From an uncultured Bacteroidota bacterium (GTDB taxonomy: Bacteria; CLD3; SB21), in the NCBI GenBank assembly GCA_964415295.1, contig CAYPYN010000002.1:324595-388594 (forward strand): DNA of 64,000 nucleotides, in the 5' to 3' direction. Positions 6,751-50,125 of the stretch are shown in pieces. The notes below the pieces were generated by a model. It searched no databases. It saw only the letters and a program-made list of their open reading frames with translations, and was not told where the DNA came from. Both the position numbers and the translations under genes were made by a program. Positions within the stretch are counted from its first letter, which is position 1, and each line of letters opens with the position of its first letter.

Positions 6751-6793
6751 TTCTCCGGTTCATTTTCAAACATATAATGTTGTTTTCAATTTC

Positions 6794-6977: not shown

Positions 6978-6978
6978 A

Positions 6979-7980: not shown

Positions 7981-7989
7981 GGCGGTTTC

Positions 7990-8940: not shown

Positions 8941-8963
8941 TGATTGCATTCTATGACTTGGAT

Positions 8964-9161: not shown

Positions 9162-9241
9162 GCGAATACCGAAAACGAATTCCGTGAATTATTCAACGAT
9201 TATGTCATTTTGCAACAGCCTCAATGGCGAAGGCAGTTCCA

Positions 9242-10678: not shown

Positions 10679-10860
10679 GGTTGTTTTTCTATTAATTCTG
10701 AATCATTTGTTATTACTGAGATTGCTTTTGTTATTGTCGGCCTTGGAAAGTTCCAAAATAGAACCGATTTCCGCGCAACTCTATCCTGCTTCGCTTCCTT
10801 CAACAAGCATGCCGAGTCATATAGCGCCTCTATGAATTTGAATTGTGCATTGGTATTCCA

Positions 10861-11055
10861 GGCCTTGAAAAAAATGCCGGACAAACCCGAGTTCGCGCCT
10901 TAACATCGGCGAAAAACCAGTCAATACATCAGTGAATTTGCACGGCTTCATGAAATAGGACCTGTTTTTCGCCGCTATGATAGCGAACGAGGGTTTAGGC
11001 ATTTTTTTCAAAGCCAAAGTTTTATTTGCAACTTTCTTTTCTAAAAAGAAAGTTG
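10861..11055. repeat. MITE-like element, copy C
   Basis: It begins GGCCTTGAAAAAAATGCCGGACAAACCCGAGTTCGC and ends GCGAACGAGGGTTTAGGCATTTTTTTCAAAGCCAAAG. The tail hairpin is CAACTTTCTTTTCTAAAAAGAAAGTTG. Internal inverted repeats GGCGAAAAAC and GTTTTTCGCC are also present. Confidence 0.7.
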
Positions 11056-11083
11056 ATATGAGGTATTTGTTAATCAAGAGTAA

Positions 11084-34090: not shown

Positions 34091-34921
34091 ATGAAAGCGA
34101 TCATTTTAGCGGCAGGACAAGGAAAAAGGTTACTCCCTCTGACCCAGGACACCCCTAAAACGTTATTGAATATTTCCGGCACCACGATTTTGGAATACCA
34201 GTTGGTCACTTTGGCCAGTTGCAATGTCAAAGAAGTGGTCTTAGTTGGCGGCTTCCGTGTGGACAAACTGAAAGACTATGCGGAACGCTATATTGCCCTG
34301 CACGGATTGGACCTCAAGTTAAAGGTCATCAACAACAAAGATTACGCGATCACGAACAATCTGTATTCTCTGTGGCTCGCTAAGGACGAAATGAATTCGG
34401 ATTTTCTCGTTATCAATGGCGACAACGTTTTCGATCGCCGCGCGATCGTGAAAATGCTGCAGCAGAAAGACATTACAGCCGCCGTGGCCATACACAAGAA
34501 CCCCAGCTACGACGATGAAGATATGAAAGTTCGTATTGTTGGTTCCAATGTGGTTGAAATCAGCAAAGGTATTGACAATCAGCTGGCCAGCGGCGAATCG
34601 ATCGGACTCCGGTTATTCCGCGGCAAAGGCGTAGCCGCTTTCAAGTATGCGATGGATCTGGCTATGATAGAAGACGTCAAACGCAACGCCTTTTTCGTTC
34701 GCGCGATCCAGCACATGATCGACATGGGTCACAACGTCGGTTACGTCGAAGTGACGGAATACAAATACGGTGAACTCGACTTTTTCGAAGACCTGAAGAA
34801 TCTCGAAATCGAAATGGCCGGTATGATGAAACAAACGATCATGATGCATACCAATCCGGCGAGCCTTTATGCGATCAGCTTACAGCCTTACCGCGCTTCC
34901 GGCATGAAAAAAGCGAGCTAA
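34091..34921 (+). CDS. Nucleotidyltransferase (sugar-/alcohol-phosphate cytidylyltransferase-like, IPCT/LicC-like)
   Basis: 276 aa with the N-terminal motif MKAIILAAGQGKRLLPL (GxGxRL NTP-binding loop) and LVINGDNVFD. A GGAGAAG Shine-Dalgarno site lies upstream. Confidence 0.8.
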   Translation: MKAIILAAGQGKRLLPLTQDTPKTLLNISGTTILEYQLVTLASCNVKEVVLVGGFRVDKLKDYAERYIALHGLDLKLKVINNKDYAITNNLYSLWLAKDEMNSDFLVINGDNVFDRRAIVKMLQQKDITAAVAIHKNPSYDDEDMKVRIVGSNVVEISKGIDNQLASGESIGLRLFRGKGVAAFKYAMDLAMIEDVKRNAFFVRAIQHMIDMGHNVGYVEVTEYKYGELDFFEDLKNLEIEMAGMMKQTIMMHTNPASLYAISLQPYRASGMKKAS

Positions 34922-34962
34922 TAGCTTGTAAATATTGATATCATTTGCAATTATATTAAATT

Positions 34963-34994
34963 CTTGATAGTTTAACTATCAAGAATTTTTTTTT
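34963..34994 (+). terminator. Hairpin plus T-run (terminator or attenuator) between the cytidylyltransferase gene and the downstream operon
   Basis: Stem CTTGATAG-tttaa-CTATCAAG followed by AATTTTTTTTTT. Confidence 0.55.
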
Positions 34995-35003: not shown

Positions 35004-36170
35004 ATGAAAATAGCCTATATCACAACCATCAAGATTCCCAGCCCGCAGGCGATATCAGAACAGGTGCTGAATAATCTTTCCGCATTGAGTTCTCACTCCG
35101 ACCTTACAATCACGCTGATTGCGCCAAAAAGAAAAGACGAGGAGCCTTCATCGGATACCATACGCCAATATTACGGGCTGAAGACTCCGGTGAAAATACA
35201 ATTCATGATGTACGCACGTTGGATGGGGCCAAAGCTCCGACGGTTTCTGCACCCCTTTTTGGCACCTCTATATTGTTCACTAAAAGGATTTGATGTATTC
35301 TATACCCGACATCCGACCATTCTGTTTTTTTGTCTTCTGCTTCACAAAAAAACGGTTTTCGATACTTACCGAATGGATCTGAGTTACGATGGAAGATATC
35401 TATTATGGAGAAAGTTCTGTCTGAATCGACGGAAGCTCATCGGTATATTCAGCCATTCGGAATTGGCCCGTCAGTCCTATATCAAAGCGGGCTTTGATCC
35501 TGATAAGATAATCACCGTTTACAACGGCTGTAACGATCGCTTCGAGGAGAGTTGTACCCAAAGAGCCAAGGTTCGTACCGATCTGAACATACCGCACGAC
35601 CAGATCGTAGTATGTTATGCCGGGCGCATCGAAAGCAAGAAAAAAAGGACCGATCTTCTTCTTCATATCGCCCATGAATTTCCCGATATCGTTTTTTTGA
35701 TAGTTGGAGGGGCTACTCAACCGTCTGAAGACGCCGTTTTTGACGACTCCATCAAAGCGCTCGGTCTTAACAACGTAATCCGGACCGGAATGGTCAAACC
35801 GTGCGAAGTCATGAATTATTTATGTGCTTCGGATATACTCATCATACCGCCTTCGGAAGACCCGCTGCACAAATGCGGCAAAACGGTACTGCCTCTCAAA
35901 ACTTTTCAATACTTGTCGGCCCGAAAAGCGATCCTGGCACCGAGACTCCCGGATATCGGTGAGGTATTAAATCACATGCAAAACGCGGTTCTGGTCACCC
36001 CCGGAGACCTAAGCGAGGCCAACCAGCAGTTGCAGGTGCTCATTGTGAACCACGACCTTCGCACAAAATTATCCAACCAGTGCGCTGAAGATATAAAGAA
36101 GTACACATGGGAATATCGGGCCAATCAAATTGCCGGTTTTCTGCATCAACATACCTCCGAAGGACGTTAA
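35004..36170 (+). CDS. Glycosyltransferase family 4 (GT-B fold)
   Basis: 388 aa with a GT4 C-terminal domain. The EX7E-like region includes SEDPLHKCGKTVLPLKTFQYLSARKAIL. Confidence 0.75.
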   Translation: MKIAYITTIKIPSPQAISEQVLNNLSALSSHSDLTITLIAPKRKDEEPSSDTIRQYYGLKTPVKIQFMMYARWMGPKLRRFLHPFLAPLYCSLKGFDVFYTRHPTILFFCLLLHKKTVFDTYRMDLSYDGRYLLWRKFCLNRRKLIGIFSHSELARQSYIKAGFDPDKIITVYNGCNDRFEESCTQRAKVRTDLNIPHDQIVVCYAGRIESKKKRTDLLLHIAHEFPDIVFLIVGGATQPSEDAVFDDSIKALGLNNVIRTGMVKPCEVMNYLCASDILIIPPSEDPLHKCGKTVLPLKTFQYLSARKAILAPRLPDIGEVLNHMQNAVLVTPGDLSEANQQLQVLIVNHDLRTKLSNQCAEDIKKYTWEYRANQIAGFLHQHTSEGR

Positions 36171-37009
36171 TGATGAAGTTCAGTATCCCCCGAAAGATGC
36201 TATGGACTATGGCCATGGTTTTTGGTCTGTCCGCCGTGATCGGTTTTCTTCTCCTCGAAAACAGTATGCGGCCGGTTCTGATCCCTCTGATAGTTGGCAT
36301 AGCAACACTGCTGTTTTTTAGTGCTTATGCATATATTGAGTTATCCAGCCGCTTAAGCTCCCATCATGACCTTGTTTACAGACAAACTGAAGCTTTATTC
36401 GGGATTCATTCCGTACTGCATCCAAGACTTCCTTTACCCTCGATGAGAGGCTGGACCATTCTTCCGGACGCCGCCGCCATTATTATTTCCAATATTCTTT
36501 CCCGAAAGCCTAACTTCATTCTCGAGTGCGGGTCCGGCGTCTCCACTATTCTGTGCGGATATTCTCTGGAGCGACTCAATAGTAAAGGCAAGATTCTGTC
36601 CATCGATCATGAAGCGTATTATGGTTCGTTAACCGCGAAGACCATGGAGAAACACGGTTTTTCATCGGATATGTTCAAAATTGTCCACGCACCGCTTATT
36701 ACTCACAAGAATGATTCCAAGCCCTTCATTTGGTATGACACGTCGTTCTTGTCCTTATTGACAAATCCCGTGGATCTTCTTATCGTGGATGGACCTCCGC
36801 ACAAGACGCAGTATAAAGCCCGTTATCCCGCCATGGCATTCCTTTTCGAAAAGCTGTCGGACAATGCCGTCATCATCCTGGACGATGGCAGCCGTCAGGA
36901 TGAAAAAGCCATCGTCGAGCAATGGCTGTCAGAATATCCTTCTTTAAAATTAGAATTTCATGACACTGAAAAAGGTGTTGCTGTGTTAACCAAAACCTCT
37001 GGCGCATGA
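36171..37009 (+). CDS. Membrane-anchored class I SAM-dependent methyltransferase
   Basis: The start ATG abuts the upstream stop. Two N-terminal TM helices are followed by motif I ILECGSGVSTIL and motif LLIVDGPPH. Confidence 0.65.
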
Positions 37010-37012: not shown

Positions 37013-37600
37013 ATGGAAACAACCATTAAGAAAATCGTATCGGAATCCATTTCAGCAAAGAACAAGCTTCTTGAAAACAAGGAACTGATTCGAACCATCG
37101 GCGTGGTGGTCAATCAAATAACAGACGCTTACCGAAATAACCGAAAAGTACTTTTCTGCGGCAATGGCGGCAGCGCTGCGGATGCTCAACACATCGCCGC
37201 CGAATTATCCGGAAGGTTTTATCTCAACCGGAAACCGCTTTATGCCGAAGCACTGCATACCAATTCGTCTCATGTAACGGCCGTGGCCAATGACTTCGGA
37301 TACCACGAAGTATTTTCAAGACTGATAGAAGCCATGGCCAATAAAAACGACATTTTGGTCGCCATTTCAACTTCGGGAAATTCTCCCAATATTTTAAAAG
37401 CCATCGAGGCGGGCCGGAAAGCCGGCATGATTACAGTCGGCCTGACCGGAGAAAATGGCGGCAAAATGAGGAACTTGTGCGATCATCTACTCAACGTACC
37501 GTCCAACGATACACCGCGTATCCAGGAGTGTCATATCCTGATTGGACACATTATTTGTGAACTTGTCGAAAAGGCGCTTTTTGAACCGGATCGACCTTGA
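37013..37600 (+). CDS. gmhA: SIS-domain D-sedoheptulose-7-phosphate isomerase
   Basis: 195 aa. FCGNGGSAADAQHIAAEL and ISTSGNSPNILKA are hallmark GmhA motifs. Confidence 0.85.
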   Translation: METTIKKIVSESISAKNKLLENKELIRTIGVVVNQITDAYRNNRKVLFCGNGGSAADAQHIAAELSGRFYLNRKPLYAEALHTNSSHVTAVANDFGYHEVFSRLIEAMANKNDILVAISTSGNSPNILKAIEAGRKAGMITVGLTGENGGKMRNLCDHLLNVPSNDTPRIQECHILIGHIICELVEKALFEPDRP

Positions 37601-38847
37601 TTGGAGTTTTTATGAAAGTCATCATTGATGCCCGTTCGCGCATGTCATTTGAGAAAGTCTACAGCATCCCGTTGTTTGAACGCATACTTAGACAACTCAA
37701 TGAACTCAAAGCCGACGTGGAAGCTATCATACTTCTTCCGCCGGACTGCAATCCTGATCATGCACTCACAGGAGGTTTTTCAAAAAGATATAAGATCAGG
37801 AAGAAGTTCATTACCACAGTTGATCCATTGCAAAAAGTGATCTCGGCCGAATCAGCCGGCGACGGTGACATGATCCTTCTGGAAGGGGACGGAATATATG
37901 ACGAAAGGATCATTTCGGCACTTATTTCCAGTCCTAAATCTATCCTGATTTGCGATGGTTCAAGTCCTTTGCCTTTGGCGGCCAGACTATCTCATGACCA
38001 TATTGGGATCCTACTGTCGTCCCAAAGAGGTGTCATGGAGTCCATCAATAATCTGGTGGAAAGCGGTTCGGTTCATCGATTTGAGATTCGTTCGATGAAC
38101 AATTATGTGCGATTTCTCCGCCGCAATGTCATACCGTTAATCACGAGAATTGTATCGAAAGATCAGATTCCTGAGATTGAAAATACGATGTACGCCAATA
38201 CATTCAAAGGAACGTTGGAGCTGGTGGCCGTTTACGGATACCGAATTCCTGTAAGAGAACTCACCAAATTATTCGCCCGAACACCAATCACTCCAAATCA
38301 TGTCACAGCGGCCGCATTGATTTGCTCTTTTGGCGCCATACCCTTCTTGGCTTTAGGTTGGCTCTGGACGGGTATTTTGATGGCCGCCGGTTTCATTATC
38401 TTTGATTCGCTTGACGGAAAATTGGCCCGGATGACCATCCGACTTAGCAAGGCCGCCGATCGCTTTGATCATTTGACGAGCACACCGACGCGATCGGCCT
38501 GGTATCTAGCTATGGGCTGGCATCTATCGAACGGAAATCTCCTAGACGGAACGGGGCTTTTTGCACTCGTCTACGCCGCCATGCCTTATGTGGATAAGCT
38601 GACCGGAGTTGCTTTTAATGCAAGATTCGGCCGGTCTCCGTTGGATTACACTCCGCTGGATGCGAAGGTCCATCTTTTTACAGTACGAAGAAATGATATC
38701 TTTTTGATGATTCTCGGGCTGAGTTTCGGATTTATTGAAACGGCCTATCGCATCGCGGCCATCTGGGCCTTGTTGACATGGCTTTGGCATCTGTATCGGT
38801 TCATCTGGTTCAACCTCTTCCCTCTCAAGAAGGAAGCCCAGTCATGA
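37597..38847 (+). CDS. Fusion protein: degenerate cytidylyltransferase-like N-domain + CDP-alcohol phosphotransferase-like membrane domain (paralog 1, non-canonical motif)
   Basis: 416 aa. The N-domain has KVIIDARSRMSFEKV in place of the GxGxRL loop but keeps ILLEGDGIYDERII (compare LVINGDNVFD in the 34091 protein). The C-domain has DGKLARMTIRLSKAADRFDHLTS, a CDP-alcohol phosphotransferase motif with G replaced by A and the last D replaced by S. It overlaps the gmhA stop by 4 bp. Confidence 0.7.
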   Translation: MIGVFMKVIIDARSRMSFEKVYSIPLFERILRQLNELKADVEAIILLPPDCNPDHALTGGFSKRYKIRKKFITTVDPLQKVISAESAGDGDMILLEGDGIYDERIISALISSPKSILICDGSSPLPLAARLSHDHIGILLSSQRGVMESINNLVESGSVHRFEIRSMNNYVRFLRRNVIPLITRIVSKDQIPEIENTMYANTFKGTLELVAVYGYRIPVRELTKLFARTPITPNHVTAAALICSFGAIPFLALGWLWTGILMAAGFIIFDSLDGKLARMTIRLSKAADRFDHLTSTPTRSAWYLAMGWHLSNGNLLDGTGLFALVYAAMPYVDKLTGVAFNARFGRSPLDYTPLDAKVHLFTVRRNDIFLMILGLSFGFIETAYRIAAIWALLTWLWHLYRFIWFNLFPLKKEAQS

Positions 38848-40019
38848 AAGTAATGATCCTGGCCATGAAATTCCTTCCTGCAAGCGGAGGAAGCGCCTCG
38901 TATGCATACAATATGGCGATCGGTCTGCATAGACTTGGACATGATATTACACTGATGGCGCCGACTTACTCGCACAGAACCATGGAAGATCATGTGTTTC
39001 CTTTCAAAGTCAGGCGATTATTTTGGTCGGGTCCCCATTTCGGAATGTTCAGGCTCTTGTTTGCGGCACTCCATATTATGGCTGTTTACATCCGGATCAA
39101 ACCGGACGTTGTTTGGACCACAAGCTTTGCAGGTTGCCGTGTTCTCGGGCTTCTGACCTTCTTAAGTGCCCGCTTTGTCGGAACGATACACGGCGGGGGT
39201 ATTCACCGGCGCTATCCCTCAAAAAAAATTTCCAACAAATTCGGTGATTACCTCGGAATGAGGTTCATGAAACGGGCGGATGCTATCGTTACCATCAGCG
39301 AAGAATCCAAAAAGATAATAAAGACCAAATTGCCTTTCGAGTTCATACATCGGAAGCTCCGTCTTATTTACAACAGTATAGACTTTGATAAGACGAAATT
39401 CCGATCCAGAGAAGACGCTCTGCAACTTCTGTCTGGTCTGAAAGACAAAAAGGTAATCCTCACGGTGGCGAGACTGGTGGCCGCAAAGGGTCAAGACGTT
39501 GTCATTCGCGCTATGTCTTTACTGGCCGATCGTCATCCGGATGCCGTCTATGTCATCGTAGGTGAAGGAGTGGAGAGACCGGCTCTGGAGGCTCTTGTCA
39601 AAGAGCTACGTTTGGAGGACCGTGTCCTATTCGCGGGATATGTCACCGACGAACAGCTTGAAATGTATTACGCCGTATGCGATCTGTTTGTGATGGCCGG
39701 GCGATGGACCCCTAATTTTGTGGAGGGTTTCGGCCTCGTATATCTCGAAGCAGGCATTCGAGGCAAAGTGGTCATTGGAACAAGAGTCGGAGGAATTCCA
39801 GAAGCCATTGTCGAAGGGCAGACGGGTTTTGTAATCGAGCCGGAAAACCCCGAATTGCTTTCGCAAAAGATCGCCGAAGTACTCTCCGACGAGAAACTCC
39901 GGTCAGAAATGGGAATTTTCGCCGCCCAATACATCGACCGTCACTACAGTAACGATGTCATGGCCGGCCACAACAACGATCTTCTCAAAGCACTGAAGGG
40001 ATCGCAACAGAAAGTATGA
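38845..40019 (+). CDS. Glycosyltransferase family 4
   Basis: The start MKVMILAMKF overlaps the upstream stop. It has a GT4 signature and an EX7E-like motif (VEGFGLVYLEAGIRGKVVIGTRVGGIPE). Confidence 0.8.
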
Positions 40020-41332
40020 ATAGTCTCGTAAAACAATCCTTACGTATTCTGTTTGGAAAATCGAGCATTTCCGGCATCGGTGTGTTGTTCACCATATATT
40101 TTGCCTACGAACTGCCAAAGAATTTATTCGCACTGATCGCCCTTTACAGTACGGCCGCCAGTTTTACTCAGGTCATGATCGACCTTGGCCTGTCGGCAAA
40201 AATGGTCCGCGAAGCGCCGTCCCTTCTGAAAGACCAATCGACCCTTAAGGACGCCGTAGATCGCGTAATCATGCCCAGCGTGGTTCTTCGCTGGATGGCG
40301 GCCGGTATCGTTTGTTTGATCATGTTCGGTTTTCTCCAATGGATGCAGGTACCTTTGTCCGACGAATTCCCGGATCTCAATATTCAGTTCATGATCCTGA
40401 TCGCTCCCGTGAGCATGATGTTTGAGAATGGCAATTCCACGCTCTCTTCCATTTTTCAGGTCAATCGCCGATTTGGTACGGATGCGATGCTGGCTTCTCT
40501 GGCGACCTTGCTTGAAATGGTTTTTGCCTTTATACTCTATCTTAATTTTGGCATGAGTCAGTATTTTACAGGCGTTCTGGCGGCACAAGCTTCCATTTTT
40601 CTTGTCAGGCTGTATCTTTGCCGGGAAACGATCCGACTCTTCAATTCGGCGGGATTGCCTTGGAAAAAGTACAGGGGTATTGTAAGAGAATATTGGCCCT
40701 ATTACTTAAGGCGCTTTTTCCGTTTCGGGCTTCTGCAGGGAGAACAGCTGTTGGTAGCGATACTCCTTCCGCTTGCACAGCTGGCCGATTTTAATCTGGC
40801 AAAAAAATTGTCAAAGTATATGAAATTCTATATTGAGGCCTTTACGAACCCGCTCATCATGAAGCTCTCCAAGAATCGAGACATCGAACTTAGGCGCAGG
40901 CACGCACGTCAATTCCTGCTTTTTACGGTACCCCCGCCGATCATACTTTGCCTGTTGAGCCCGTGGATCATGCAGATCGCCGGAGGGGAAAAATATGCCG
41001 GGAGTTGGTTCATCCTCGCCATACTTTATGCTTCCTATGTATTCTATGCTTTTTCCAATCTCCAGATATCCGCAATAACTATATTCGGAAAAGGTACTGA
41101 TGTCCTGATGAGAGATGCGATAGGCAGTGTGGTCGGTTTGTGTGCCACGTTTGTTTTGATTCTGCTGTTCGGGCAATACGGATTGGCATGGGGCCAGCTT
41201 CTCGCTTATTTCACACTTTTCATAACCGGATACCAGTTGTCAAAGAAGTACATTGACTCTGATACGTCTGTTGATAAAGAGAAAAATAAAAACAAAACTC
41301 CGGAACCATCGGCACTGACGATTCCGGACTGA
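40016..41332 (+). CDS. Wzx-like oligosaccharide/lipid flippase (MOP superfamily)
   Basis: 438 aa with about 12 predicted TM helices. It overlaps the upstream stop by 4 bp. Confidence 0.7.
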   Translation: MNSLVKQSLRILFGKSSISGIGVLFTIYFAYELPKNLFALIALYSTAASFTQVMIDLGLSAKMVREAPSLLKDQSTLKDAVDRVIMPSVVLRWMAAGIVCLIMFGFLQWMQVPLSDEFPDLNIQFMILIAPVSMMFENGNSTLSSIFQVNRRFGTDAMLASLATLLEMVFAFILYLNFGMSQYFTGVLAAQASIFLVRLYLCRETIRLFNSAGLPWKKYRGIVREYWPYYLRRFFRFGLLQGEQLLVAILLPLAQLADFNLAKKLSKYMKFYIEAFTNPLIMKLSKNRDIELRRRHARQFLLFTVPPPIILCLLSPWIMQIAGGEKYAGSWFILAILYASYVFYAFSNLQISAITIFGKGTDVLMRDAIGSVVGLCATFVLILLFGQYGLAWGQLLAYFTLFITGYQLSKKYIDSDTSVDKEKNKNKTPEPSALTIPD

Positions 41333-41362
41333 TTCTGGCAAAACCCAATTTGCGGAGTAATT

Positions 41363-42010
41363 ATGAAGTTGCTAAACCTCGCCAATACCATCACCATGGT
41401 TCGTATCATCATCCTGTACATCACTGTTTACCTGATATACAATGGGGAAATAGTATTCCTGTTTATGGCAATCGGGCTGTCCATAGTCATAATCGGCTTA
41501 GATTGGCTGGATGGTTTTGTGGCCCGCCGTCGTAATGAGGTGACGCAATTCGGCGGTGTTTTGGATATCACCGGCGACCGTATTGTCGAAAATGTGTTCT
41601 GGATCGTCTTTGCCGACCTCGACATCATTCCGATGTGGATACCCATTATCGTTATGTCCCGCGGTTTCATGACTGATGCGATCCGCAGCCAGGCTTTGAC
41701 CGAAGGTAAAACCGCCTTTGGAGAGAATACCATGATGACCAGTGATATCGGGAAATTTCTTGTATCCGGCCGGTTCATGCGCGGACTATACGGCATTATC
41801 AAAGGCGTGACATTCCCATACCTGATCCTGGTACTGATCGCGCAGGAGCGTCATTTGAGGGATGCCAATCTTCAGGACTATCTGTGGGTCTCTACTTACA
41901 CGAAGAACGGCGGCGTCGCTTTGGCCATTACTACAACGGTTGTGAGCCTATTAAGAGGAATCCCTGTTCTGACCGAGGGACGTAAACTCTTTGTTAAGGA
42001 TGAAAAGTGA
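41363..42010 (+). CDS. CDP-alcohol phosphatidyltransferase (PgsA/PIP-synthase-like), canonical motif
   Basis: 215 aa. DGFVARRRNEVTQFGGVLDITGD fits D-G-x2-A-R-x8-G-x3-D-x3-D exactly. Multiple TM helices. Confidence 0.85.
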   Translation: MKLLNLANTITMVRIIILYITVYLIYNGEIVFLFMAIGLSIVIIGLDWLDGFVARRRNEVTQFGGVLDITGDRIVENVFWIVFADLDIIPMWIPIIVMSRGFMTDAIRSQALTEGKTAFGENTMMTSDIGKFLVSGRFMRGLYGIIKGVTFPYLILVLIAQERHLRDANLQDYLWVSTYTKNGGVALAITTTVVSLLRGIPVLTEGRKLFVKDEK

Positions 42011-42648
42011 AACTGGCTATTTTCGATATCGACGGAACCATTACTAATAAATCATCGGAACGATTTTTCATCAAGTATCTGTTGGAACGGAAGATCATCG
42101 GCTACGGCCATTTGGTGAAGACATTTTTTCTATTCGTAATGAAGCACCCTTTGCAGGCACGGACGGGTTTTAAACAGAATAAGATGTATCTGAGAGATCT
42201 AAGTGATAAAGCCCTGCGACTGGCTGCGGCCGAGTGTTTCAAAAGGAGCATCAAGCCCAATATTAAACAAACCATATTGGATGAAATAAATGAACGGAAG
42301 TCCCGAGGATACAAGATACTCCTACTAAGTGGGTCGCTTCCCTGTCTTGTGGAACCGATGCTAGATCATACCGGCGCCGATCATATGATCTGTTCCGATG
42401 TAGAAATTTCCAACGGTCTTTTCACTGGACATATGACAGATCTGCATCCATACGGACCAAGAAAAAGGATACTCGCAGAAAGATTTTGTCAGAGAAACGG
42501 CTACCGCATGGACCAATCGTGCGCCTATGCCAACGAATGGGCCGACCGGTTTCTTTTGGAATCAGTCGGAGAAGCAGTTGCTGTCGATCCGGATGAGAAG
42601 CTCAGGAAATTGGCTGACTCCAAGAAGTGGAAAATGATTAAAAGTTAA
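42007..42648 (+). CDS. HAD-superfamily hydrolase, subfamily IB (phosphoserine-phosphatase-like)
   Basis: 213 aa with motif I LAIFDIDGTIT, then S/T, K and DD motifs. It overlaps the upstream stop by 4 bp. Confidence 0.75.
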   Translation: MKLAIFDIDGTITNKSSERFFIKYLLERKIIGYGHLVKTFFLFVMKHPLQARTGFKQNKMYLRDLSDKALRLAAAECFKRSIKPNIKQTILDEINERKSRGYKILLLSGSLPCLVEPMLDHTGADHMICSDVEISNGLFTGHMTDLHPYGPRKRILAERFCQRNGYRMDQSCAYANEWADRFLLESVGEAVAVDPDEKLRKLADSKKWKMIKS

Positions 42649-42649
42649 T

Positions 42650-44092
42650 ATGGCTAAAACATTTAAACTCAAGCAGGCCGCGTGGTTTAAGGATGAAGAG
42701 AGGGAATTTACAGTTCCCGATTCCTTCACTGTTGACTTGATCACTCCGAAGGATGCCCCCTCTTTGACACCCGACGAGATACTCGGCTCAATTCAAAAAC
42801 CTTTCGGTCCATCATTAAGAGAAATGGCCATTGGAAAAAAGAAGGTTGTCGTTGTAACCGACGATCTCGGAAGACCCACACCTGCTTACCTGTTGATTCC
42901 AATTTTAATCGAAGAGTTGGAGACGGCCGGTATACTGAAAGAAAATATTTCCTTCGTTATCGCGACCGGTTCCCACCGTCAGTTGTCTTGCAGTGAGATT
43001 GAAAAAAAAATCGGCAAGACCATAGCCGATTCCTATCCCGTTCATTGTCACGATGCCTTCAATTCCCCCATGGTTCATCTTGGCCGTTTGGATAATGGAT
43101 TCCCCTGTATAGCCAATAGACAAGTTGCCGAAGCCGATCTGATTCTTGGGATAGGGTGCGTGATCCCGCACGCTTGCCATGGTTTTGGAGGCGGCGCTAA
43201 GCTTTTCTGTCCCGGTATTGCCGGCATGGAAAGCATTGTTACCATGCACGGTTTTGTACCAAAACGCGGCCGCGTGATAACCGATCCTCCTCCTGGTGTG
43301 TGGGATATGCGTTCGGCATCCGAGGCCTTTGCCCGGCTATTGCCGCCGATCTTCCTGGTAAACGCCGTTGTCAATTCGCAAAGAGAAATTGCCGGATTAT
43401 TTGCCGGAGAGACCGATCCGGTTTTTCGGGCGGCTCAAGAACGGGCGTTGGAAATTTATAAAACGGAAATCGACCCTGAAAAGGCCGCCTCGTACGACGT
43501 CATCTTGGTCAACATGTATCCTCTGGATTCAGATCCGGTCCAGTCGGGAAAAAGCCCGTGGATCCGTCAGTACTTCAAGCATGCTTTACCTATTCAGATC
43601 AACAGTTCTGCGGACGGTATCGACTACCACGGCTGGAAATTATTGAGAAAGAGCCGCTGGTCAACTTTCTTAATACTATTAACCGGAGAAGCCTTGAGCC
43701 TTAAATTCATGCCCGTTTTCCTAAGACGGCCGGCTTCGTGGAAAATCATTAAAACCCTGAGGTCCTATTGCCTTAAACGAATGTTGGATCACCCGGGTGT
43801 CGATTATGACACATTCATCAAAAACCAACATACGCTGACTCAACGTACGGAAGATTATACAGATGATTCTAAGATCCCAAGTCTATTTCGCAAACCCTGG
43901 ATATTCTCTGAGAATTATCCTCCGTTACAATTCAAGAAGAAATATCCATTCGGGTCATTGCTGAGAAATTGGGATCACGTAATTCAGTCCATACAGAGCC
44001 ATTTTCCCAAGCCAAAAATTGCCGTCGTAACATGCGCCGCGATGCAGATTCCCGTTTATAGCAACTCACAAAACGAACCAAATGCTTTATGA
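42650..44092 (+). CDS. LarA-like (lactate racemase N-terminal domain / DUF2088) protein
   Basis: 480 aa. The N-terminal region VVVVTDDLGRPTP...IATGSHR resembles the nickel-pincer racemase/epimerase family. The C-terminal half is divergent. Confidence 0.6.
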   Translation: MAKTFKLKQAAWFKDEEREFTVPDSFTVDLITPKDAPSLTPDEILGSIQKPFGPSLREMAIGKKKVVVVTDDLGRPTPAYLLIPILIEELETAGILKENISFVIATGSHRQLSCSEIEKKIGKTIADSYPVHCHDAFNSPMVHLGRLDNGFPCIANRQVAEADLILGIGCVIPHACHGFGGGAKLFCPGIAGMESIVTMHGFVPKRGRVITDPPPGVWDMRSASEAFARLLPPIFLVNAVVNSQREIAGLFAGETDPVFRAAQERALEIYKTEIDPEKAASYDVILVNMYPLDSDPVQSGKSPWIRQYFKHALPIQINSSADGIDYHGWKLLRKSRWSTFLILLTGEALSLKFMPVFLRRPASWKIIKTLRSYCLKRMLDHPGVDYDTFIKNQHTLTQRTEDYTDDSKIPSLFRKPWIFSENYPPLQFKKKYPFGSLLRNWDHVIQSIQSHFPKPKIAVVTCAAMQIPVYSNSQNEPNAL

Positions 44093-45315
44093 CCATCCTT
44101 ATTGATGCCAGATCGAAATACGCTTCGGAAAGACTATTCAACTTATCCTTAACCGAGAGAATTCTGAGGCAATTGCATGTATTGGAAGCCAGAAACGTAT
44201 GCGTAATAATTTCTGAAGGCATGCGTCCTGACAATTTTGTTAAGACCGGATTTGAAAAACGTTTTCCTCTAGCGTTGCGCTGGATCTGCACAAACGAACC
44301 ACTGGCTAGAATTGCCGGCGAAACCGCAGATAAGAGCGACTACCTCATTCTCGAAGGAGACGGCATTTACGACGATCGTATTTTAAAAGAACTGTTGGAA
44401 TCGAAATCTTCGTTATGGGTAAGAAATGAGAAGAACCCGGAAGCGCCTCTAGCCCTCGCTCTCCGCGGATCCGACGTAAGGCATTTCACGGAATCCGGCA
44501 AATCACCAAAGGAATTCTTGGCAACCTTCTCCATTCCAACACTTGGCACGCACTCCATGCAGGCCTATATCCGCTTTTTGCGGAAACATATTGAACCCGT
44601 TTTGATTCGCTTGACGGATCCAAAGGATATTCGATCGATCGAAAACGATCTTTACGAAAAAACCTTTAAAGGCGGAATGGAAATCGTGGCGATCTACGGT
44701 TACCGGATCCCCGTTCGCGAACTCACTCGTTTTTTTGCCAAGACACCGATTACGCCCAATATGGTGACCGGCGTAGCTACCCTTTGTAAACTGGGAGCTA
44801 TACCGTTCTTTTTCTACGGTCATCTCTTGACGGGTCTGCTGTTGGCTTTTTCTTTTATTATCCTTGATTCACTGGATGGAAAACTGGCCCGCATGACCTT
44901 CCGATTCAGCGATACGGCCGATAAAGTTGATCATATGACAAGCATGCCGGCGCGGGTTGGGTGGAACTTCGGCATGTGCTGGCATTTTTCCGGCGGAGAC
45001 CTTACCAGCATACCCGGGATCGCCGGATTGATCGTAACGGTCCTGCCTTTTCTGGACGACATCAACTGGACCATTATCAAGCACAAATTCCATCGTTCTC
45101 TTTTCGATCTTACCCCTTTTGATGCAACCGTGCACCTGTTCAATGTCAAACGCAATGATACAGCCGTTATGATCATCGGCACCTTGGCCGGATTTCCTTT
45201 ACAGGCTTTTTATTTCATAACTTTTTGGACCATGGTCGTTTGGATCTGGCACACGGTACGAACCGCCTATGTGATCCTGGTTCTTAGTAAACAACATCCG
45301 GAAATGCTGCAATAA
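44089..45315 (+). CDS. Fusion protein: degenerate cytidylyltransferase-like N-domain + CDP-alcohol phosphotransferase-like domain (paralog 2, non-canonical motif)
   Basis: 408 aa, a paralog of the 37597 gene. The N-domain has MTILIDARSKY and ILEGDGIYDDRIL. The C-domain has DGKLARMTFRFSDTADKVDHMTS, with the same G-to-A and D-to-S substitutions. Confidence 0.7.
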   Translation: MTILIDARSKYASERLFNLSLTERILRQLHVLEARNVCVIISEGMRPDNFVKTGFEKRFPLALRWICTNEPLARIAGETADKSDYLILEGDGIYDDRILKELLESKSSLWVRNEKNPEAPLALALRGSDVRHFTESGKSPKEFLATFSIPTLGTHSMQAYIRFLRKHIEPVLIRLTDPKDIRSIENDLYEKTFKGGMEIVAIYGYRIPVRELTRFFAKTPITPNMVTGVATLCKLGAIPFFFYGHLLTGLLLAFSFIILDSLDGKLARMTFRFSDTADKVDHMTSMPARVGWNFGMCWHFSGGDLTSIPGIAGLIVTVLPFLDDINWTIIKHKFHRSLFDLTPFDATVHLFNVKRNDTAVMIIGTLAGFPLQAFYFITFWTMVVWIWHTVRTAYVILVLSKQHPEMLQ

Positions 45316-45336
45316 AACCGATAAGGCGATTAATCC

Positions 45337-46830
45337 ATGACCCCTTCTCCAGCTATAAGAAATGCGATACTGATCACGGTCAACTCACAACACCAGTCCA
45401 TAGTTACCGATGTGCTCTACGGCGGCGAAACTCTGCTTAACCGTTCGCTCGTGGCTATGTCCAAATCCGGGATTACGAAGGCAACGATCGTCTCGGCACC
45501 GGGTTCATCCCAAAAGATTATGGAAATGATCAGTAAAGTCGATCATCGTCTTTCTCTCAAGTATGATATCACGGAACTGAGTCAAAATGAAATTTTATCG
45601 GTAAAGATCAAATCGATTACCGCCGGAAACAAAGAAAGCTTTTTGATTTTCGAGGCGGACAAGTTCATGCATCCAACCTTCCTTCAGCAGGTCGTGGCGT
45701 CGGAGCTTCCGGATAAAGCCGTACTCCCGGCTTATAAAGATGTGCTCACCAAAGACGGACAGGTTGTCTTTGCTCCCTCTTTTAAAGAAAAATTCAAGAT
45801 CATTTTTGCAAATGCCGGGAGTTTCAACAAAATCAAAGTTGAGAACGCCGACTGGTCTTTATTCAACTCCAATCCCATGACACTTTCTGCGGCCAATGTC
45901 CGTACTGTTTTGACACAGAACGGGAGCGGTATTATATCCACTGACGTGATGGTTTGTTCAGGAAATATATTAAACCGCTTGACTGATTTTCGATCCCTGG
46001 ATGAAGCAATAAATCAGGCGATCGGATCGGGCCTTGCATCAGTGGCATTTGTCAAAGATGCCTGGTGGCTGCGTGTCACGCCGTCCATATCGAAGTCGCA
46101 CATCAAAGAGATGATATGGAAAATCGCTTTTAAAGAGATCAGCGGGGAATTTTCCAAGGCGGTTAACTCCAAGATGTCAAAACCGTTATCATTTTATTTT
46201 GCACGTAAAGGCGTAACTCCCAATACCCTCAGCAATGCGCAACTGGTCCTGTTTCTTTTGGCCTCCTGTTTCCTGCTATTCAATACACACTGGGCGATGA
46301 TCGTATTTGCGGTAATCTGGCAGTTTTCCGCCGGCGTTTTGGACCGCTGCGACGGCGAGGTAGCCCGCATTCGCAATCACGAATCGGAATCCGGCGGTCG
46401 CTTTGACATGATCATCGACGACATGCGTTTTGGATTACCGTTCATCATATTGGGTGCGGTACTTTATCTGGAAAGTCAAGACTCATTGTATCTCTTCTCC
46501 TTTGGAGCGGCATTTGTCTGGTTCTTAGCCTTGACCCTGTACGAACAGAATTTCATGCGCAAAGCCGGGTATGTCAGCCGCCAGGTGATGTATGTCGATT
46601 ATATGAAAATGATCGGTGAGGATAGCCAGACAACGTCGGCATTGAAGAAATACGCACCTATCGCCAAGGGCGATATCAGAACGTTTTATGTTTTTCTTTT
46701 ATCTCTTTTTGGTCTAAAAGAGATTGTCTTTTGGGTACTTTTGGCTTATCTTACCTTAGTTCCTATCTCTTCCTTCGTGGGTGTCCTGCGCTTTAAGAAG
46801 GAATATTCCAAGAACCCGGGCCGGGTGTAG
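45337..46830 (+). CDS. Fusion protein: cytidylyltransferase-like N-domain + canonical CDP-alcohol phosphotransferase (DIPPS-like) domain (paralog 3)
   Basis: 497 aa. The C-domain motif DGEVARIRNHESESGGRFDMIIDD fits D-G-x2-A-R-x8-G-x3-D-x3-D exactly. The N-domain (~250 aa) lacks a glycine-rich loop. Confidence 0.75.
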   Translation: MTPSPAIRNAILITVNSQHQSIVTDVLYGGETLLNRSLVAMSKSGITKATIVSAPGSSQKIMEMISKVDHRLSLKYDITELSQNEILSVKIKSITAGNKESFLIFEADKFMHPTFLQQVVASELPDKAVLPAYKDVLTKDGQVVFAPSFKEKFKIIFANAGSFNKIKVENADWSLFNSNPMTLSAANVRTVLTQNGSGIISTDVMVCSGNILNRLTDFRSLDEAINQAIGSGLASVAFVKDAWWLRVTPSISKSHIKEMIWKIAFKEISGEFSKAVNSKMSKPLSFYFARKGVTPNTLSNAQLVLFLLASCFLLFNTHWAMIVFAVIWQFSAGVLDRCDGEVARIRNHESESGGRFDMIIDDMRFGLPFIILGAVLYLESQDSLYLFSFGAAFVWFLALTLYEQNFMRKAGYVSRQVMYVDYMKMIGEDSQTTSALKKYAPIAKGDIRTFYVFLLSLFGLKEIVFWVLLAYLTLVPISSFVGVLRFKKEYSKNPGRV

Positions 46831-47038: not shown

Positions 47039-50000
47039 ATGCACAATCCCGCATTGCGACCCGTTTATGTCGGCATTGACGTTGGTTCTATCAGCGTCAA
47101 AATGGCCGCGCTGACCGCACCTGAGGACGAACTTGGTTCTTCTGATCACTTCGAACTTTTCAAGAACCAGCGCTTCACAATGGCTCTGTCCCGCTATCGC
47201 CGTTCGAACGGCGAAAGCCTGGCCGTGACCGTGCAGATGCTGCGTCAGTTAACAGAAATAATTCCTCTGAGCCGCATCGCCGGGATTCAGGTCATTGGAT
47301 CCGGCGGACGACAGATCAGCGATCATTTACAGGCGCAATTCGAGAATGAATTTCGTGCCGTAGCCAAAGGCGTGGGTACCTTATATCCGGATGTTCAGAC
47401 CGTATTCGAAATGGGCGGCGACAATTCCAAGTTCCTTCATATTCAAATCAACAAGCAGAGCGGCATGATCGGGATCGAAGATTATGAAAAGAACGGCGAT
47501 TGCGCGGCGGGCACGGGGTCTTTTATGGATCAGCAGGCCAGCCGATTGAAATACAACATCGAAGAAGTAGGAGACATCGTACTGAAAGCCGGAAAAGCCA
47601 GTACCATTGCCGGCCGTTGCTCCGTTTTTGCAAAGAGCGACATGATCCACGCCCAGCAGAAAGGCGAACAGCCCCCTGAAATCCTCAAAGGTCTGTGCGA
47701 AGCGGTTGTCAGAAACTTTAAGAGTTCCATCGTTAAAGGACGTACGATCGCGCCCAAAGCCATTTTCATCGGCGGCGTCTCGGCCAATAAAGGTGTGGTT
47801 CAAGCCATGAAGAACTTATTTGAAATTCCGGACGAGGATTTCATCACGACGCCGTTTTATGCCTGGTGCGGAGCTATCGGCGCGGCGCTCTTGGCTAAGG
47901 AAGCGAAGGTTCTAAAAGATCACCGGTATCTCGAAAGCTTAATTTCAGAAGGAGAACTCAAATCAAATAATAGTTTTGCGTCGGGACAACCGCTTCACAC
48001 ACGCGATGTCATCTTTTTGCGTGACCGGGTGAAGCCGTATTCCTTTGAAGGAAAATCCATTCCCGTCAAAGCCTATTTGGGAATTGATATCGGTTCGGTC
48101 AGCACCAACCTGGTCGTGATCGACGACGATAATAATATCATAAAAGAGATCTACGTCTATACGCAGGCGAGGCCTATCGAGATCGTAAACCAGGGTCTTA
48201 AGGATATCCACCGGGAACTGGGCGGAAAAATATCCGTTGAAGGCGTTGGCACGACAGGTTCCGGGCGGGAATTGATCGGAGAGCTGATCGGCGCCGATGC
48301 GATTAAGGACGAGATCACGGCGCATAAGACGGGAGCCGTCTACATCAGCGACAAACTCATCCAAGCCAAAGTCGATACGATATTCGAAATCGGCGGGCAG
48401 GATTCCAAATTCATCAGCCTGCAGGATAATATCGTGGTTGATTTTGCGATGAACGAGGCCTGTGCGGCAGGAACCGGTTCCTTCCTGGAAGAACAGGCGG
48501 AAAAACTCGGCATCAGCATCAAAGGTGAGTTCTCAAAGCTGGCCTTGAGTTCCGCCAGTCCGATCAAGCTCGGCGAACGATGCACGGTCTTCATGGAAAA
48601 AGACATCAACGCCTTCATGCAGACGGGCGCGGCCAAAGAGGACATCGTAGCGGGACTTGCCTATTCCATTGTTCACAATTATCTCAACCGGGTCGTGCGT
48701 TCAAGGAAGATCGGCGACACAATCTATTTCCAGGGCGGCACCGCTTACAATGATTCCGTGGCCGCGGCCTTCTCGATGGTTCTGGGTAAGAAGATCATCG
48801 TGCCTCCGCACAACGGCGTTGTCGGCGCTATCGGCGCGGCTATTCTAGCCAAAGAAAAAGTTCTTGCCGGTCAGGATAAGACGAAATTCCGAGGCTACAG
48901 TCTTGATGCGATCAATTATACCGTTCGCCATTTTACCTGCCGCGCCTGCTCCAATTTCTGCGACATGCAGGAGGTCAAAGTGGATTCAGAAAAAACATTC
49001 TGGGGGGATAAATGCTCCGACAAATTCCGTAAGAAAGCCAAAGTGGATAAAAAGCCGGTCATACCCAACCTGGCCGATCTCCGGGAAAACATCCTCATGG
49101 AAACATTTGAACCGGGCCGTAATCAAGGGAACAAATCGATCGGGCTCCCGAGGAGCATGCATTTTTTTGAGAAACTTCCATTTTGGAATGCCTATTTCAA
49201 TAGCGTGGGTTTTCAAGTGGTATTGTCGGAATCTACCAATAAAGAGATCATTAATGCCGGCGTCGAAGCGACCATCGCCGAACCGTGTTTCCCGATCAAG
49301 GTCGCTCACGGTCATTTTAAGAATCTAATAGACAAAGGCTGCGATTATATTTTCCAACCCAATGTCATCGACGGCGAGACGAAGTTCATGAACTACAACT
49401 CCCACCATTGCCCATGGACGCAGACTTTGCCGTTCGTTCTCAAAGGCTCCTCTCTCGGTGAAGGCCGCGAAGAAATGATCCTGTGTCCGACCCTTCATTT
49501 CCGCGAAGGTCAGAAAAAGATATCGGATGAACTTTTTGATTATCTGAAGAGGCCCCTGAATCTCAAACGGACATTGCACGATAAAGCCGTGCAAAGGGCT
49601 TATGATGCCCAGCACCGGTTCCAGCAAAAGCTCTATGAATTGGGCCGTGACGCGATCCGTGCTATCGACGACAGCGGCGAAATGGCCGTGATCCTGGTCG
49701 GCCGCGTGTATAACGTGAACGACCGCAGCATGAATCTCAATATCCCCAACAAATTGCGGGAGTATTACGGGATTAATGTCATCCCCATGGACATGCTCGA
49801 TATTCATTCCATCGATATCACCGATATCAACAACAACATGTACTGGAATTCCGGCCGAAAGATCCTTCAGATTGCGAAGTTCATAAAGGACAGACCGCAC
49901 CTGCATCTCATTTACATCACCAATTTCAAGTGCGGTCCGGATTCTTACATCAAACATTTCGTCGCCGAGGCATCAGGGAAACCTTTTCTAACCCTGCAAC

Positions 50001-50125
50001 TGGACGGCCACGCCAACGACGCCGGTGTGGTTACCCGATGCGAGGCTTATCTGGACAGCAAGGGATTTTTCAGATCCCAAAATGCCTCCTACCGGTACGA
50101 AATGGAAAAATGCGACGTCTGTTAA
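47039..50125 (+). CDS. CoA-substrate-specific enzyme activase-like protein (two BadF/BadG/BcrA/BcrD-type ATPase domains + C-terminal Cys-containing domain)
   Basis: 1028 aa with two acetate/sugar-kinase-fold ATPase starts (VYVGIDVGSISVKMA and YLGIDIGSVSTNLVVID). The downstream Cys cluster is CRACSNFCD. Confidence 0.7.
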   Translation: MHNPALRPVYVGIDVGSISVKMAALTAPEDELGSSDHFELFKNQRFTMALSRYRRSNGESLAVTVQMLRQLTEIIPLSRIAGIQVIGSGGRQISDHLQAQFENEFRAVAKGVGTLYPDVQTVFEMGGDNSKFLHIQINKQSGMIGIEDYEKNGDCAAGTGSFMDQQASRLKYNIEEVGDIVLKAGKASTIAGRCSVFAKSDMIHAQQKGEQPPEILKGLCEAVVRNFKSSIVKGRTIAPKAIFIGGVSANKGVVQAMKNLFEIPDEDFITTPFYAWCGAIGAALLAKEAKVLKDHRYLESLISEGELKSNNSFASGQPLHTRDVIFLRDRVKPYSFEGKSIPVKAYLGIDIGSVSTNLVVIDDDNNIIKEIYVYTQARPIEIVNQGLKDIHRELGGKISVEGVGTTGSGRELIGELIGADAIKDEITAHKTGAVYISDKLIQAKVDTIFEIGGQDSKFISLQDNIVVDFAMNEACAAGTGSFLEEQAEKLGISIKGEFSKLALSSASPIKLGERCTVFMEKDINAFMQTGAAKEDIVAGLAYSIVHNYLNRVVRSRKIGDTIYFQGGTAYNDSVAAAFSMVLGKKIIVPPHNGVVGAIGAAILAKEKVLAGQDKTKFRGYSLDAINYTVRHFTCRACSNFCDMQEVKVDSEKTFWGDKCSDKFRKKAKVDKKPVIPNLADLRENILMETFEPGRNQGNKSIGLPRSMHFFEKLPFWNAYFNSVGFQVVLSESTNKEIINAGVEATIAEPCFPIKVAHGHFKNLIDKGCDYIFQPNVIDGETKFMNYNSHHCPWTQTLPFVLKGSSLGEGREEMILCPTLHFREGQKKISDELFDYLKRPLNLKRTLHDKAVQRAYDAQHRFQQKLYELGRDAIRAIDDSGEMAVILVGRVYNVNDRSMNLNIPNKLREYYGINVIPMDMLDIHSIDITDINNNMYWNSGRKILQIAKFIKDRPHLHLIYITNFKCGPDSYIKHFVAEASGKPFLTLQLDGHANDAGVVTRCEAYLDSKGFFRSQNASYRYEMEKCDVC

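Follow-up and report, generated by a model that had tools for sequence, protein, structure and literature searches.

A cluster with two unusual CDP-alcohol phosphotransferases

We analyzed a window of 64,000 nucleotides from an uncultured Bacteroidota bacterium, and its genes were read from the sequence and from homology. Three of these genes, par1, par2, and par3, encode fusions of a domain that resembles nucleoside triphosphate (NTP) transferases to a CDP-alcohol phosphotransferase (CAPT) domain. CAPTs have a signature of eight residues, D1xxD2G1xxAR...G2xxxD3xxxD4. In par1 and par2, the final aspartate (D4) is a serine, so we describe these proteins as D4-less. (We also describe them as CpgA-like, after CpgA from Caulobacter crescentus.) All three genes are intact open reading frames (ORFs) on the + strand, within a co-directional cluster that has several 4-nt overlaps of start and stop codons. 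The three genes and their signatures are:

37612-38847, + strand: par1, a D4-less CpgA-like fusion of a degenerate NTP-transferase-fold domain and a CAPT domain with six transmembrane helices (TM1 to TM6)
38404-38481, + strand: signature of par1, amino acids 270-295 (D270 to S295), DSLDGKLARMTIRLSKAADRFDHLTS
44089-45315, + strand: par2, a second D4-less CpgA-like fusion
44866-44943, + strand: signature of par2, amino acids 260-285 (D260 to S285), DSLDGKLARMTFRFSDTADKVDHMTS
45337-46830, + strand: par3, an AF2299/IPCT-DIPPS-like fusion of a full-size NTP-transferase-fold domain that lacks the NTP-binding loop and a canonical CAPT
46342-46419, + strand: canonical signature of par3, DRCDGEVARIRNHESESGGRFDMIID

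par1 and par2 each retain six of the eight signature residues (D1, D2, G1, A, R, and D3), with alanine in place of G2 (Ala287 in par1) and serine in place of D4 (Ser295 in par1). par3 and a small CAPT encoded at 41363 have all eight. The initial annotation of this DNA had reported these motifs, with the alanine and serine substitutions in par1 and par2 and the full consensus in par3, and all of them are present. Two HMMER alignments confirm the substitutions. When par2 is aligned to the phosphatidylinositol-phosphate synthase RsPIPS (PDB:5d92), D1, D2, G1, A, and R match exactly, with Ala at the G2 position, Asp at D3, and Ser at D4. A profile of the family aligned to AF2299 (PDB:4o6m) gives the identical register. 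The annotation had allowed that the motif might be misregistered, with a canonical D-x3-D elsewhere; these structure-anchored alignments show neither, and none of the other registers restores D-x3-D. The annotation had also described an invariant glycine replaced by alanine. Alanine does align to G2, but most relatives of par1 and par2 have a glycine one position later (A/M-G-x2-D/E-H). (par1 and par2 have Asp at that position and have Gly at neither.)

The cytosine-binding motif P(D/N)xx(T/S) at the start of TM1 is present in all three proteins (PNHVT in par1, PNMVT in par2, and PNTLS in par3) and does not vary across the family. Scores against PF01066 fall just below the gathering threshold of 22 bits for par1 (21.7) and par2 (18.1) and above it for par3 (42.0) and the small CAPT (64.8). 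Aligned along their whole length, par1 and par2 share 43% identity. par3, which had been counted as a third paralog, is only distantly related to them (24% identity over 222 amino acids, E = 7e-8) and belongs to a separate deep clade. Also, the ORF of par1 extends to a TTG at 37597, which had been taken as its start, but the ATG at 37612 is most likely the start codon (the database protein, P0001, has 411 amino acids).

The fold and the N-terminal domain

AlphaFold modeled par1 with a predicted local distance difference test score (pLDDT) of 91.4 and a predicted template modeling score of 0.87, and par3 with a pLDDT of 88.1. With Foldseek, both models match IPCT-DIPPS (PDB:4mnd; the top match) and AF2299 over their full length. 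The six-helix CAPT fold of the models matches AF2299, IPCT-DIPPS, and PIPS (E = 1e-9 to 1e-14), and the N-terminal domains alone match MurU, RmlA, and inositol-1-phosphate cytidylyltransferases. Because of these full-length and N-terminal matches, the architecture (an NTP-transferase-like domain followed by a CAPT) is as had been proposed.

The N-terminal domains lack the glycine-rich NTP loop, as previously noted: the GxGxR...PK loop is missing from par1, par2, and par3, and is intact in the standalone enzyme encoded at 34091 and its relatives. Retention of an (L/I)xxGDxxxD segment had been claimed for all three. It is retained in par1 (LLEGDGIYD) and par2 (LILEGDGIYD), but par3 has FEADKFMH instead. 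The GDGIYDER of par1 resembles the GDNVFDRR of the standalone enzyme. E28, R29, D102, and R104 of the N-terminal domain are invariant and are common to canonical CpgA-like proteins. Across the par3 family, His112 is invariant.

These domains had been viewed as fitting pseudo-enzymes or a retargeted specificity. They are indeed non-canonical, but this is not special to par1, par2, and par3: it holds across the family, canonical members included. Because canonical CpgA-like proteins also have the loop-less domain, the degenerate loop is ancestral to the whole family, including the canonical CpgA-like and AF2299-like members, and unlinked to the loss of D4. The N-terminal domain may be a non-catalytic relic of a CpgD-like nucleotidyltransferase, in which G-D-x-[IV]-[FY]-D-x-R was kept and the triphosphate loop was lost.

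A D4-less clade under purifying selection

A search of 5.8 billion proteins yielded 68 homologs of par1, and 67 of them, with only the most distant excepted, fit the pattern D..DGKLAR-x8-[A/F]-x3-D-x3-[S/T/V]. We found about 50 D4-less homologs, all with Ser, Thr, Val, or Ala at D4, from Bacteroidota, Latescibacterota, Gemmatimonadota, and one Planctomycetota metagenome-assembled genome (MAG). The motif is A..D..S/T/V or A-G..E..S in Bacteroidota and M-G..E..A in Latescibacterota, Gemmatimonadota, and the Planctomycetota MAG. (Below, we give the residues at G2, D3, and D4 as three letters, such as ADS or MEA.) Members of the wider D[ST][VL]DGKLAR family from Proteobacteria, Binatia, Myxococcota, and Spirochaetota have the canonical G..D..D, as do all 120 of the par3 homologs that we examined. 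A profile search of 1.84 billion cluster representatives gave 341 relatives at E ≤ 1e-30; some 27 of the top 150 belong to the D4-less type.

In a neighbor-joining tree, all of the proteins with S/T/V/A at D4 form one clade (bootstrap 84/100), which contains three sub-clades (bootstraps of 94-100) and is nested among canonical clades. The par3-like (AF2299-like) proteins form a separate deep branch.

The D4-less proteins are maintained by selection. Seven pairs of D4-less orthologs with clean gene models have dN/dS ratios of 0.10-0.40 (0.105 for the par1 orthologs from L001 and L003), and canonical pairs have ratios of 0.11-0.24. Between the window and its close relative L002, par1 is 65% identical, and the neighboring GmhA, flippase, HAD, and LarA-like proteins are 67-69% identical. 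Across 58 sequences, 33 alignment columns are invariant, and D1, D2, G1, A, R, and D3 (D or E) are invariant in the roughly 50 proteins from at least four phyla. No frameshifted copies were seen among the D4-less homologs. Because of the low dN/dS, the divergence similar to that of neighboring genes, and the lack of frameshifted copies, these sequence comparisons exclude decay of the par1/par2 lineage. The initial annotation had argued that the substitutions were selected rather than random, and had pointed to dN/dS in related genomes and to frameshifts in homologs as the places to look; both bear it out. (In some high-GC loci, we also encountered apparent triple fusions of 560-630 amino acids, with a nucleotidyltransferase joined to a D4-less protein. 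These are artefacts of ORF extension, with low-complexity upstream translation, and one of them raised a dN/dS value to 0.69.)

No curated family covers par1 and par2. Besides the Pfam scores below threshold, they have only weak NCBIfam matches to PIP synthase, and their database names are generic. A literature search found no published description of CAPTs without D4 or of CAPT pseudoenzymes. par1 and par2 belong to a branch of the CAPT family that spans several phyla and appears to be previously undescribed.

D4 has also been replaced independently by His, Asn, or Gly in other small branches of the superfamily. One sub-family has His at D4 and Lys in place of the His after D3 (...LGHxLDKxSH...; L009 9392-10720, L020 4549-5757, P0217, P0222, P0225, P0226, and P0243), which suggests a swap of histidine between two neighboring positions in TM3. 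At L081, an AF2299-like fusion (8830-9990) has Gly at D4 (DCVDGTLAR...G-QKL-D-TIL-G-H). D4 was lost here independently. The fusion gene adjoins a D4-less CpgA-like gene, a nucleotidyltransferase, a TagD-like cytidylyltransferase, and an aminotransferase. Another sub-family (P0263-P0328; DG[LV]DGK[LQ]AR-x8-G-x2-E-H-x2-D) has Glu at D3, keeps D4, and has a spacing from G2 to D3 that is one residue shorter. The G-x2-E-H spacing is common to this sub-family and the AES and MEA clades of D4-less proteins.

Residues that are kept and residues that changed

Much of the active site remains in the D4-less clades. PNxxT (in TM1), D1, D2, G1, K, L, A, R, a carboxylate at D3 (Asp or Glu), and the His that follows D3 are 90-100% conserved, as in their canonical CpgA-like relatives. 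Another set of residues, D333, K/R334, D355, R364, R365, N366, H398, and R401, is also 90-100% conserved and is predicted to lie where TM4-6 end on the cytoplasmic side and in the TM4-TM5 loop. From the topology, we predict that this set corresponds to the basic acceptor pocket that lies between TM4-6 in PIPS.

Other residues changed. The HPP motif three residues after D4 was lost in the D4-less clade; par1 and par2 have T-R-S or A-R-V instead. Arg359, which is present in 46 of 46 canonical CpgA-like proteins, is His in 51 of 52 D4-less proteins. In the juxtamembrane helix, Thr207 and Thr211 became hydrophobic or Ala, and His349 was lost.

Comparison to characterized proteins

Of the proteins that have been studied, CpgA is the closest to par1 and par2; this assignment is by the synteny of locus L064 rather than by direct comparison to the Caulobacter sequence. 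CpgA of C. crescentus (CC_1159/CCNA_01217) is known by genetics and makes ceramide diphosphoglycerate: this enzyme carries a PgsA/CAPT domain and attaches the second phosphoglycerate (PMC9393093, PMC11324152). CpgB is a ceramide kinase, and CpgD (CC_1152) is a CTP:phosphoglycerate cytidylyltransferase that makes CDP-glycerate (PMC9393093, PMC11324152, PMC12275187). L064, from Sulfitobacter, reproduces the sphingolipid region of Caulobacter: an spt-like aminotransferase, an unannotated gene, a DAGK_cat kinase, a CAPT fusion, and a metallophosphoesterase. It also has LptF, LptG, a second CAPT fusion, a fatty-acid hydroxylase, and genes for a GNAT-like protein, an NTP_transf_3 protein, and a nucleotidyltransferase.

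In the tree, par1 and par2 fall within the CpgA-like family, with which they share D[ST]VDGKLAR, the D-H at and after D3, RRN, H..R in TM5 and TM6, and the loop-less N-terminal domain. G2, D4, HPP, and Arg359, which the CpgA-like proteins keep, are missing from par1 and par2. As with CpgA, a CpgD-type partner is nearby: the standalone enzyme (34091-34921) is 36% identical to the gene in the CpgD position of L064, and its loop is intact. Its best matches in PDB are LicC (1jyk; E = 1.7e-15) and the IPCT of T. maritima (4jd0). This cytidylyltransferase is the likely source of a CDP-activated donor. Genes for spt, the cpgB kinase, and bcerS, which are present in L064, were not among the window's ORFs that we scanned. 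Unlike the cpgA locus, the window has a family 4 glycosyltransferase (GT4), GmhA, a LarA-like protein, a MOP flippase, and extra CAPT genes.

We also compared par1, par2, and par3 to CAPTs of known structure. AF2299 of Archaeoglobus fulgidus (PDB:4o6m and 4o6n) is a CAPT with a cytidylyltransferase-like domain (PMC4634129). It has the same arrangement as our proteins, a non-catalytic cytidylyltransferase-like N-terminal domain with a six-helix CAPT, and is their best match by sequence (E = 3.9e-11 for par3 and, with a profile, 1.8e-8 for par1; structural TM-scores are 0.62-0.78). In contrast to AF2299, whose signature is complete, par1 and par2 lack G2 and D4 and have an extra helix in the cytoplasmic loop between TM4 and TM5, with D350, D355, and H359. 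IPCT/DIPPS of A. fulgidus (4mnd), the top full-length structural match for par1 and par3, has the same order of domains, but its IPCT is active and has a glycine-rich loop. In PIPS (RsPIPS, 5d92, and MtPgsA1, 6h53), the PNxxT of TM1 and the D1xxD2GxxAR of TM2 align directly to our proteins, and the basic residues in TM5 and TM6 of par1 and par2 are analogous to R153 and R191, which bind the phosphate of inositol phosphate. Unlike par1 and par2, PIPS has D4 (D93N is inactive), uses CDP-diacylglycerol, and has no N-terminal domain.

Gene neighborhoods

The other genes of the cluster are:

34091-34921, + strand: standalone cytidylyltransferase of the LicC/IPCT/CpgD family (Pfam NTP_transf_3 and NTP_transferase), with an intact GxGxRL...PK loop
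35004-36170, + strand: GT4
36107-37009, + strand: membrane methyltransferase-like protein
37013-37600, + strand: GmhA-like SIS sugar-phosphate isomerase (TIGR00441, 207 bits against a cutoff of 209)
38841-40019, + strand: GT4 glycosyltransferase whose start overlaps the stop of par1 (Pfam Glycos_transf_1, 1e-42); kept in the cassette
40016-41332, + strand: MOP-type (Polysacc_synt) flippase; kept in the cassette
41363-42010, + strand: small PgsA-like CAPT (PF01066, 64.8 bits), with a canonical signature (GDD) at 41501-41578
42007-42648, + strand: HAD-IB phosphatase, translationally coupled to the small CAPT (TIGR01490, 107 bits, above the cutoff)
42650-44092, + strand: LarA-like homolog of nickel-pincer-cofactor racemases/epimerases, whose stop overlaps the start of par2 (Lar_N, 1.3e-44)
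47039-50125, + strand: double BcrAD_BadFG ATPase and DUF2229 protein of 1028 amino acids, similar to "acyl-CoA dehydratase activase"
50147-51481, + strand: protein of 444 amino acids without a family match
51508-52239, + strand: DUF3047 protein, a recurrent member of the cassette

A scan of the genomes of GTDB species gave 277 loci, of which we retrieved 80 for comparison. Among public genomes, the closest loci come from MAGs of uncultured Bacteroidota, such as L002, with 97% identity for the nucleotidyltransferase and 93% for the small CAPT; across the sister MAGs, the small CAPT is 85-93% identical. The core of the cassette comprises a CpgD/LicC-like cytidylyltransferase, a LarA-like protein, a GT4, a MOP flippase, a small CAPT, an AF2299-like CAPT, and a DUF3047 protein. 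In the compact L085 locus, the order is nucleotidyltransferase, LarA-like, D4-less (ADS), GT4, flippase, small CAPT, D4-less (AES), par3-like, and DUF3047. The DUF3047 gene recurs in Bacteroidota and Gemmatimonadota-like loci (in the window, at L034 2192-2974, and at L085 15181-15918), and the double BcrAD_BadFG/DUF2229 gene also follows par3 in the sister MAGs L023 and L025. A literature search found nothing relevant on DUF3047 or on CAPT with LarA in these phyla.

Each D4-less gene is coupled to a soluble enzyme of its own, of one of three kinds: GmhA, LarA-like, or a nucleotidyltransferase similar to CpgD. First, a gene for a GmhA-like sedoheptulose-7-P isomerase is always directly upstream of the par1 orthologs in L001-L004. 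The cluster has no heptose kinase or GmhB, which hints that a heptose 7-phosphate may be the donor or acceptor of a CAPT step. Second, in seven loci a LarA-like gene immediately precedes a par2-type gene, and in Latescibacterota one lies nearby. LarA-like genes accompany D4-less CAPTs in the window, L002, L005, L006, L008, L010, L011, L083, and L085, and are near a D4-less CAPT in the Latescibacterota loci L014, L021, L035, L038, and L040. Compared to LarA (PDB:2yjg), the LarA-like protein keeps the His of ATGSHR and the Lys of PH..GGxK, and its C-terminal 180 or so amino acids are divergent. No larB, larC, or larE genes were seen within the window. (The idea that the LarA-like enzyme feeds L-2-phosphoglycerate to the CpgD-like enzyme is pure speculation, because CpgD from Caulobacter prefers the D-enantiomer of phosphoglycerate (PMC13228409).) Third, loci from Gemmatimonadota and Latescibacterota have two intact CpgD-like cytidylyltransferases, and each adjoins one CAPT fusion, one canonical and the other D4-less. 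Flippases, ABC exporters, and an LPG_synthase_TM domain are also associated with D4-less genes.

Most Bacteroidota loci, and about 17 of 28 loci of the MEA type, have a canonical fusion like par3 next to the D4-less gene. Three loci have no canonical fusion near the D4-less genes. L081 has a TagD-like enzyme, an aminotransferase, a nucleotidyltransferase, the CAPT with Gly at D4, and a D4-less CAPT (that is, two cytidylyltransferases and two CAPTs that lack D4). In L083, two D4-less CAPTs accompany a LarA-like gene, an ELM1-like glycosyltransferase, and an ABC exporter, and L084 has a lone D4-less gene. No canonical CpgA-like member was seen in the sampled loci of the FCB group (here Bacteroidota, Latescibacterota, and Gemmatimonadota).

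A scan for promoters and terminators found nothing above the expectation from shuffled sequence except a strong hairpin 3' of the gene at 34091. This hairpin (14 bp, perfect, with a T-run, at 34958-34988) lies directly 3' of the cytidylyltransferase gene and may be a terminator or attenuator that sets this gene apart from the rest of the cluster. Upstream of the cluster, on the - strand, a set of genes for hydroxyproline/proline catabolism (2203-11989) is unrelated to par1, par2, and par3. It has two genes of the proline racemase family, a DAO oxidoreductase, an ornithine cyclodeaminase-like gene, an aldehyde dehydrogenase, a DHDPS-like gene, and an M24 peptidase.

Are the D4-less proteins active?

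Three conclusions are solid. The D4-less proteins are a selected, ligand-binding membrane family; they derive from canonical CpgA-like transferases; and they work in a conserved pathway with CDP-activated head groups whose envelope product is exported. What par1 and par2 do within this pathway is a matter of likelihood.

We tentatively favor the view that par1 and par2 are rewired CpgA/AF2299-type transferases that are still active and use an alternative base. In the common ancestor of this sub-family from the FCB group, the aspartate at D4 was swapped for a small residue (Ser, Thr, Val, or Ala), and the active-site segment was remodeled along with it, with the loss of HPP and the change from Arg359 to His. 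Strong purifying selection held the CDP-binding residues, the metal-binding carboxylate at D3, and the residues of the predicted basic acceptor pocket. par1 and par2 would still bind a CDP-activated polar head group from the cluster's CpgD/LicC-like cytidylyltransferase and would pass its phospho-alcohol on to an anionic acceptor, in one of a series of CAPT steps. The product would be an envelope glycolipid or polymer that is rich in phosphodiesters and that the cassette's flippase would export. The general base could be His292 (next to D3), the clade-specific His359, or the substrate itself.

We favor rewired catalysis for several reasons. First, the acceptor pocket is no less conserved than the nucleotide site. 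Second, every D4-less gene comes with a substrate-supplying enzyme of its own. Third, the clade diversified into sub-families, as enzymes of differing specificity do. Fourth, some operons have no canonical CAPT. Fifth, D4 was replaced repeatedly within the family. And finally, histidines are available, and a histidine has been proposed as the general base in CEPT1 (PMC10156783).

Several observations weigh against this view. Of the candidate bases, His292 is variable in the ADT-type members. The change to His359 is a single phylogenetic event, so its covariation with D4 is not independent evidence and is suggestive only. The replacements at D4 are chemically heterogeneous, as would be expected at a position without a function. 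Most of the cassettes also encode canonical CAPTs (par3-like and small PgsA-like) that could supply all of the catalysis. And the eight signature residues have been described as "absolutely conserved" in CAPTs, with D1 to D3 binding metal and D4 as the catalytic base (Clarke et al. 2015, PMC4634129): in MtPIPS, changing D4 to Asn nearly abolishes activity and leaves substrate binding unaffected (PMC4634129).

Somewhat less probably, par1 and par2 are pseudoenzymes. They would be catalytically dead but still bind a CDP-ligand and metal, and would serve as regulators, scaffolds, or heterodimer partners of par3, of the small CAPT at 41363, or of both, or would anchor the GmhA-like or LarA-like enzymes encoded just upstream to the membrane. 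Besides the lost base with its diverse replacements and the D4 mutant that still binds substrate, three things would fit: CAPTs are dimers in the solved structures of PIPS, AF2299, and DIPPS (PMC4634129), a canonical par3-like fusion is often adjacent, and each D4-less gene is translationally coupled to the gene for a soluble enzyme. But the candidate partner par3 is from a different deep clade, with 24% identity; L081, L083, and L084 have no canonical fusion near the D4-less genes; the residues of the acceptor pocket, beyond the nucleotide site, are conserved as in canonical enzymes; and at least three sub-families have distinct gene partners, which resembles diversification of specificity. 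The initial annotation had preferred an arrangement of one catalytic subunit and two regulatory or scaffold paralogs. For these reasons, and because the D4-less genes are each coupled to a soluble enzyme of their own, this arrangement is not established, and the altered chemistry that had been mentioned as an alternative is at least as likely.

A role other than transfer is improbable. par1 and par2 might sense or sequester a CDP-activated intermediate or aid the translocation of a lipid-linked product, in keeping with the retention of ligand-binding residues without the base and with the flippases, ABC exporters, and LPG_synthase_TM domain nearby. However, the cassette already has dedicated flippases, and we know of no precedent for such a role in the CAPT family.

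Two further explanations fare worse still. An ordinary bifunctional IPCT/DIPPS that makes the compatible solute di-myo-inositol phosphate would match the best structural hit (4mnd) and the phosphatase gene in the cluster, but it is very hard to credit, as the NF041135 scores of par1, par2, and par3 (22.9, 15.1, and 59 bits) are far below the equivalog cutoff of 580, the N-terminal domains lack the GxGxR/K catalytic loop, no inositol-1-phosphate synthase gene is among the cluster genes scanned, and the glycosyltransferases and flippase are typical of envelope products. Decaying pseudogenes or a misregistered motif could account for the PF01066 scores just below threshold, but are refuted by intact ORFs in dozens of genomes, purifying selection, the invariant columns, a high-confidence AlphaFold model, and two independent alignments that set the register.

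If par1 and par2 are rewired transferases, a more specific scheme can be drawn, which we think is rather unlikely as a whole: the D4-less clade would transfer a phospho-alcohol with His292, His359, or the substrate as the base, and a line of four CAPTs, with the LarA-like epimerase, would build a new anionic envelope lipid of the FCB group, rich in phosphodiesters and functionally analogous to the ceramide diphosphoglycerate of Caulobacter.

Implications

CAPTs are responsible for most phospholipid head groups across all domains of life, and among them are drug targets such as the mycobacterial PIPS and the fungal Cho1. To our knowledge, every structural and mutational study of CAPTs has taken D4 to be an absolutely conserved catalytic base, and it is still debated whether D4 serves as the base or binds metal. 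A large, selected clade without D4 is a natural experiment on the role of this residue. If the D4-less proteins are active, then the CAPT fold can catalyze transfer with another base, which would bear on this debate. If they are not, they would be the first pseudoenzyme branch of the CAPT family. Either way, the finding ties a cassette that is found across phyla to the recently discovered chemistry of CpgA and CpgD, and suggests that Bacteroidota, Gemmatimonadota, and Latescibacterota have anionic envelope lipids that are yet to be discovered.

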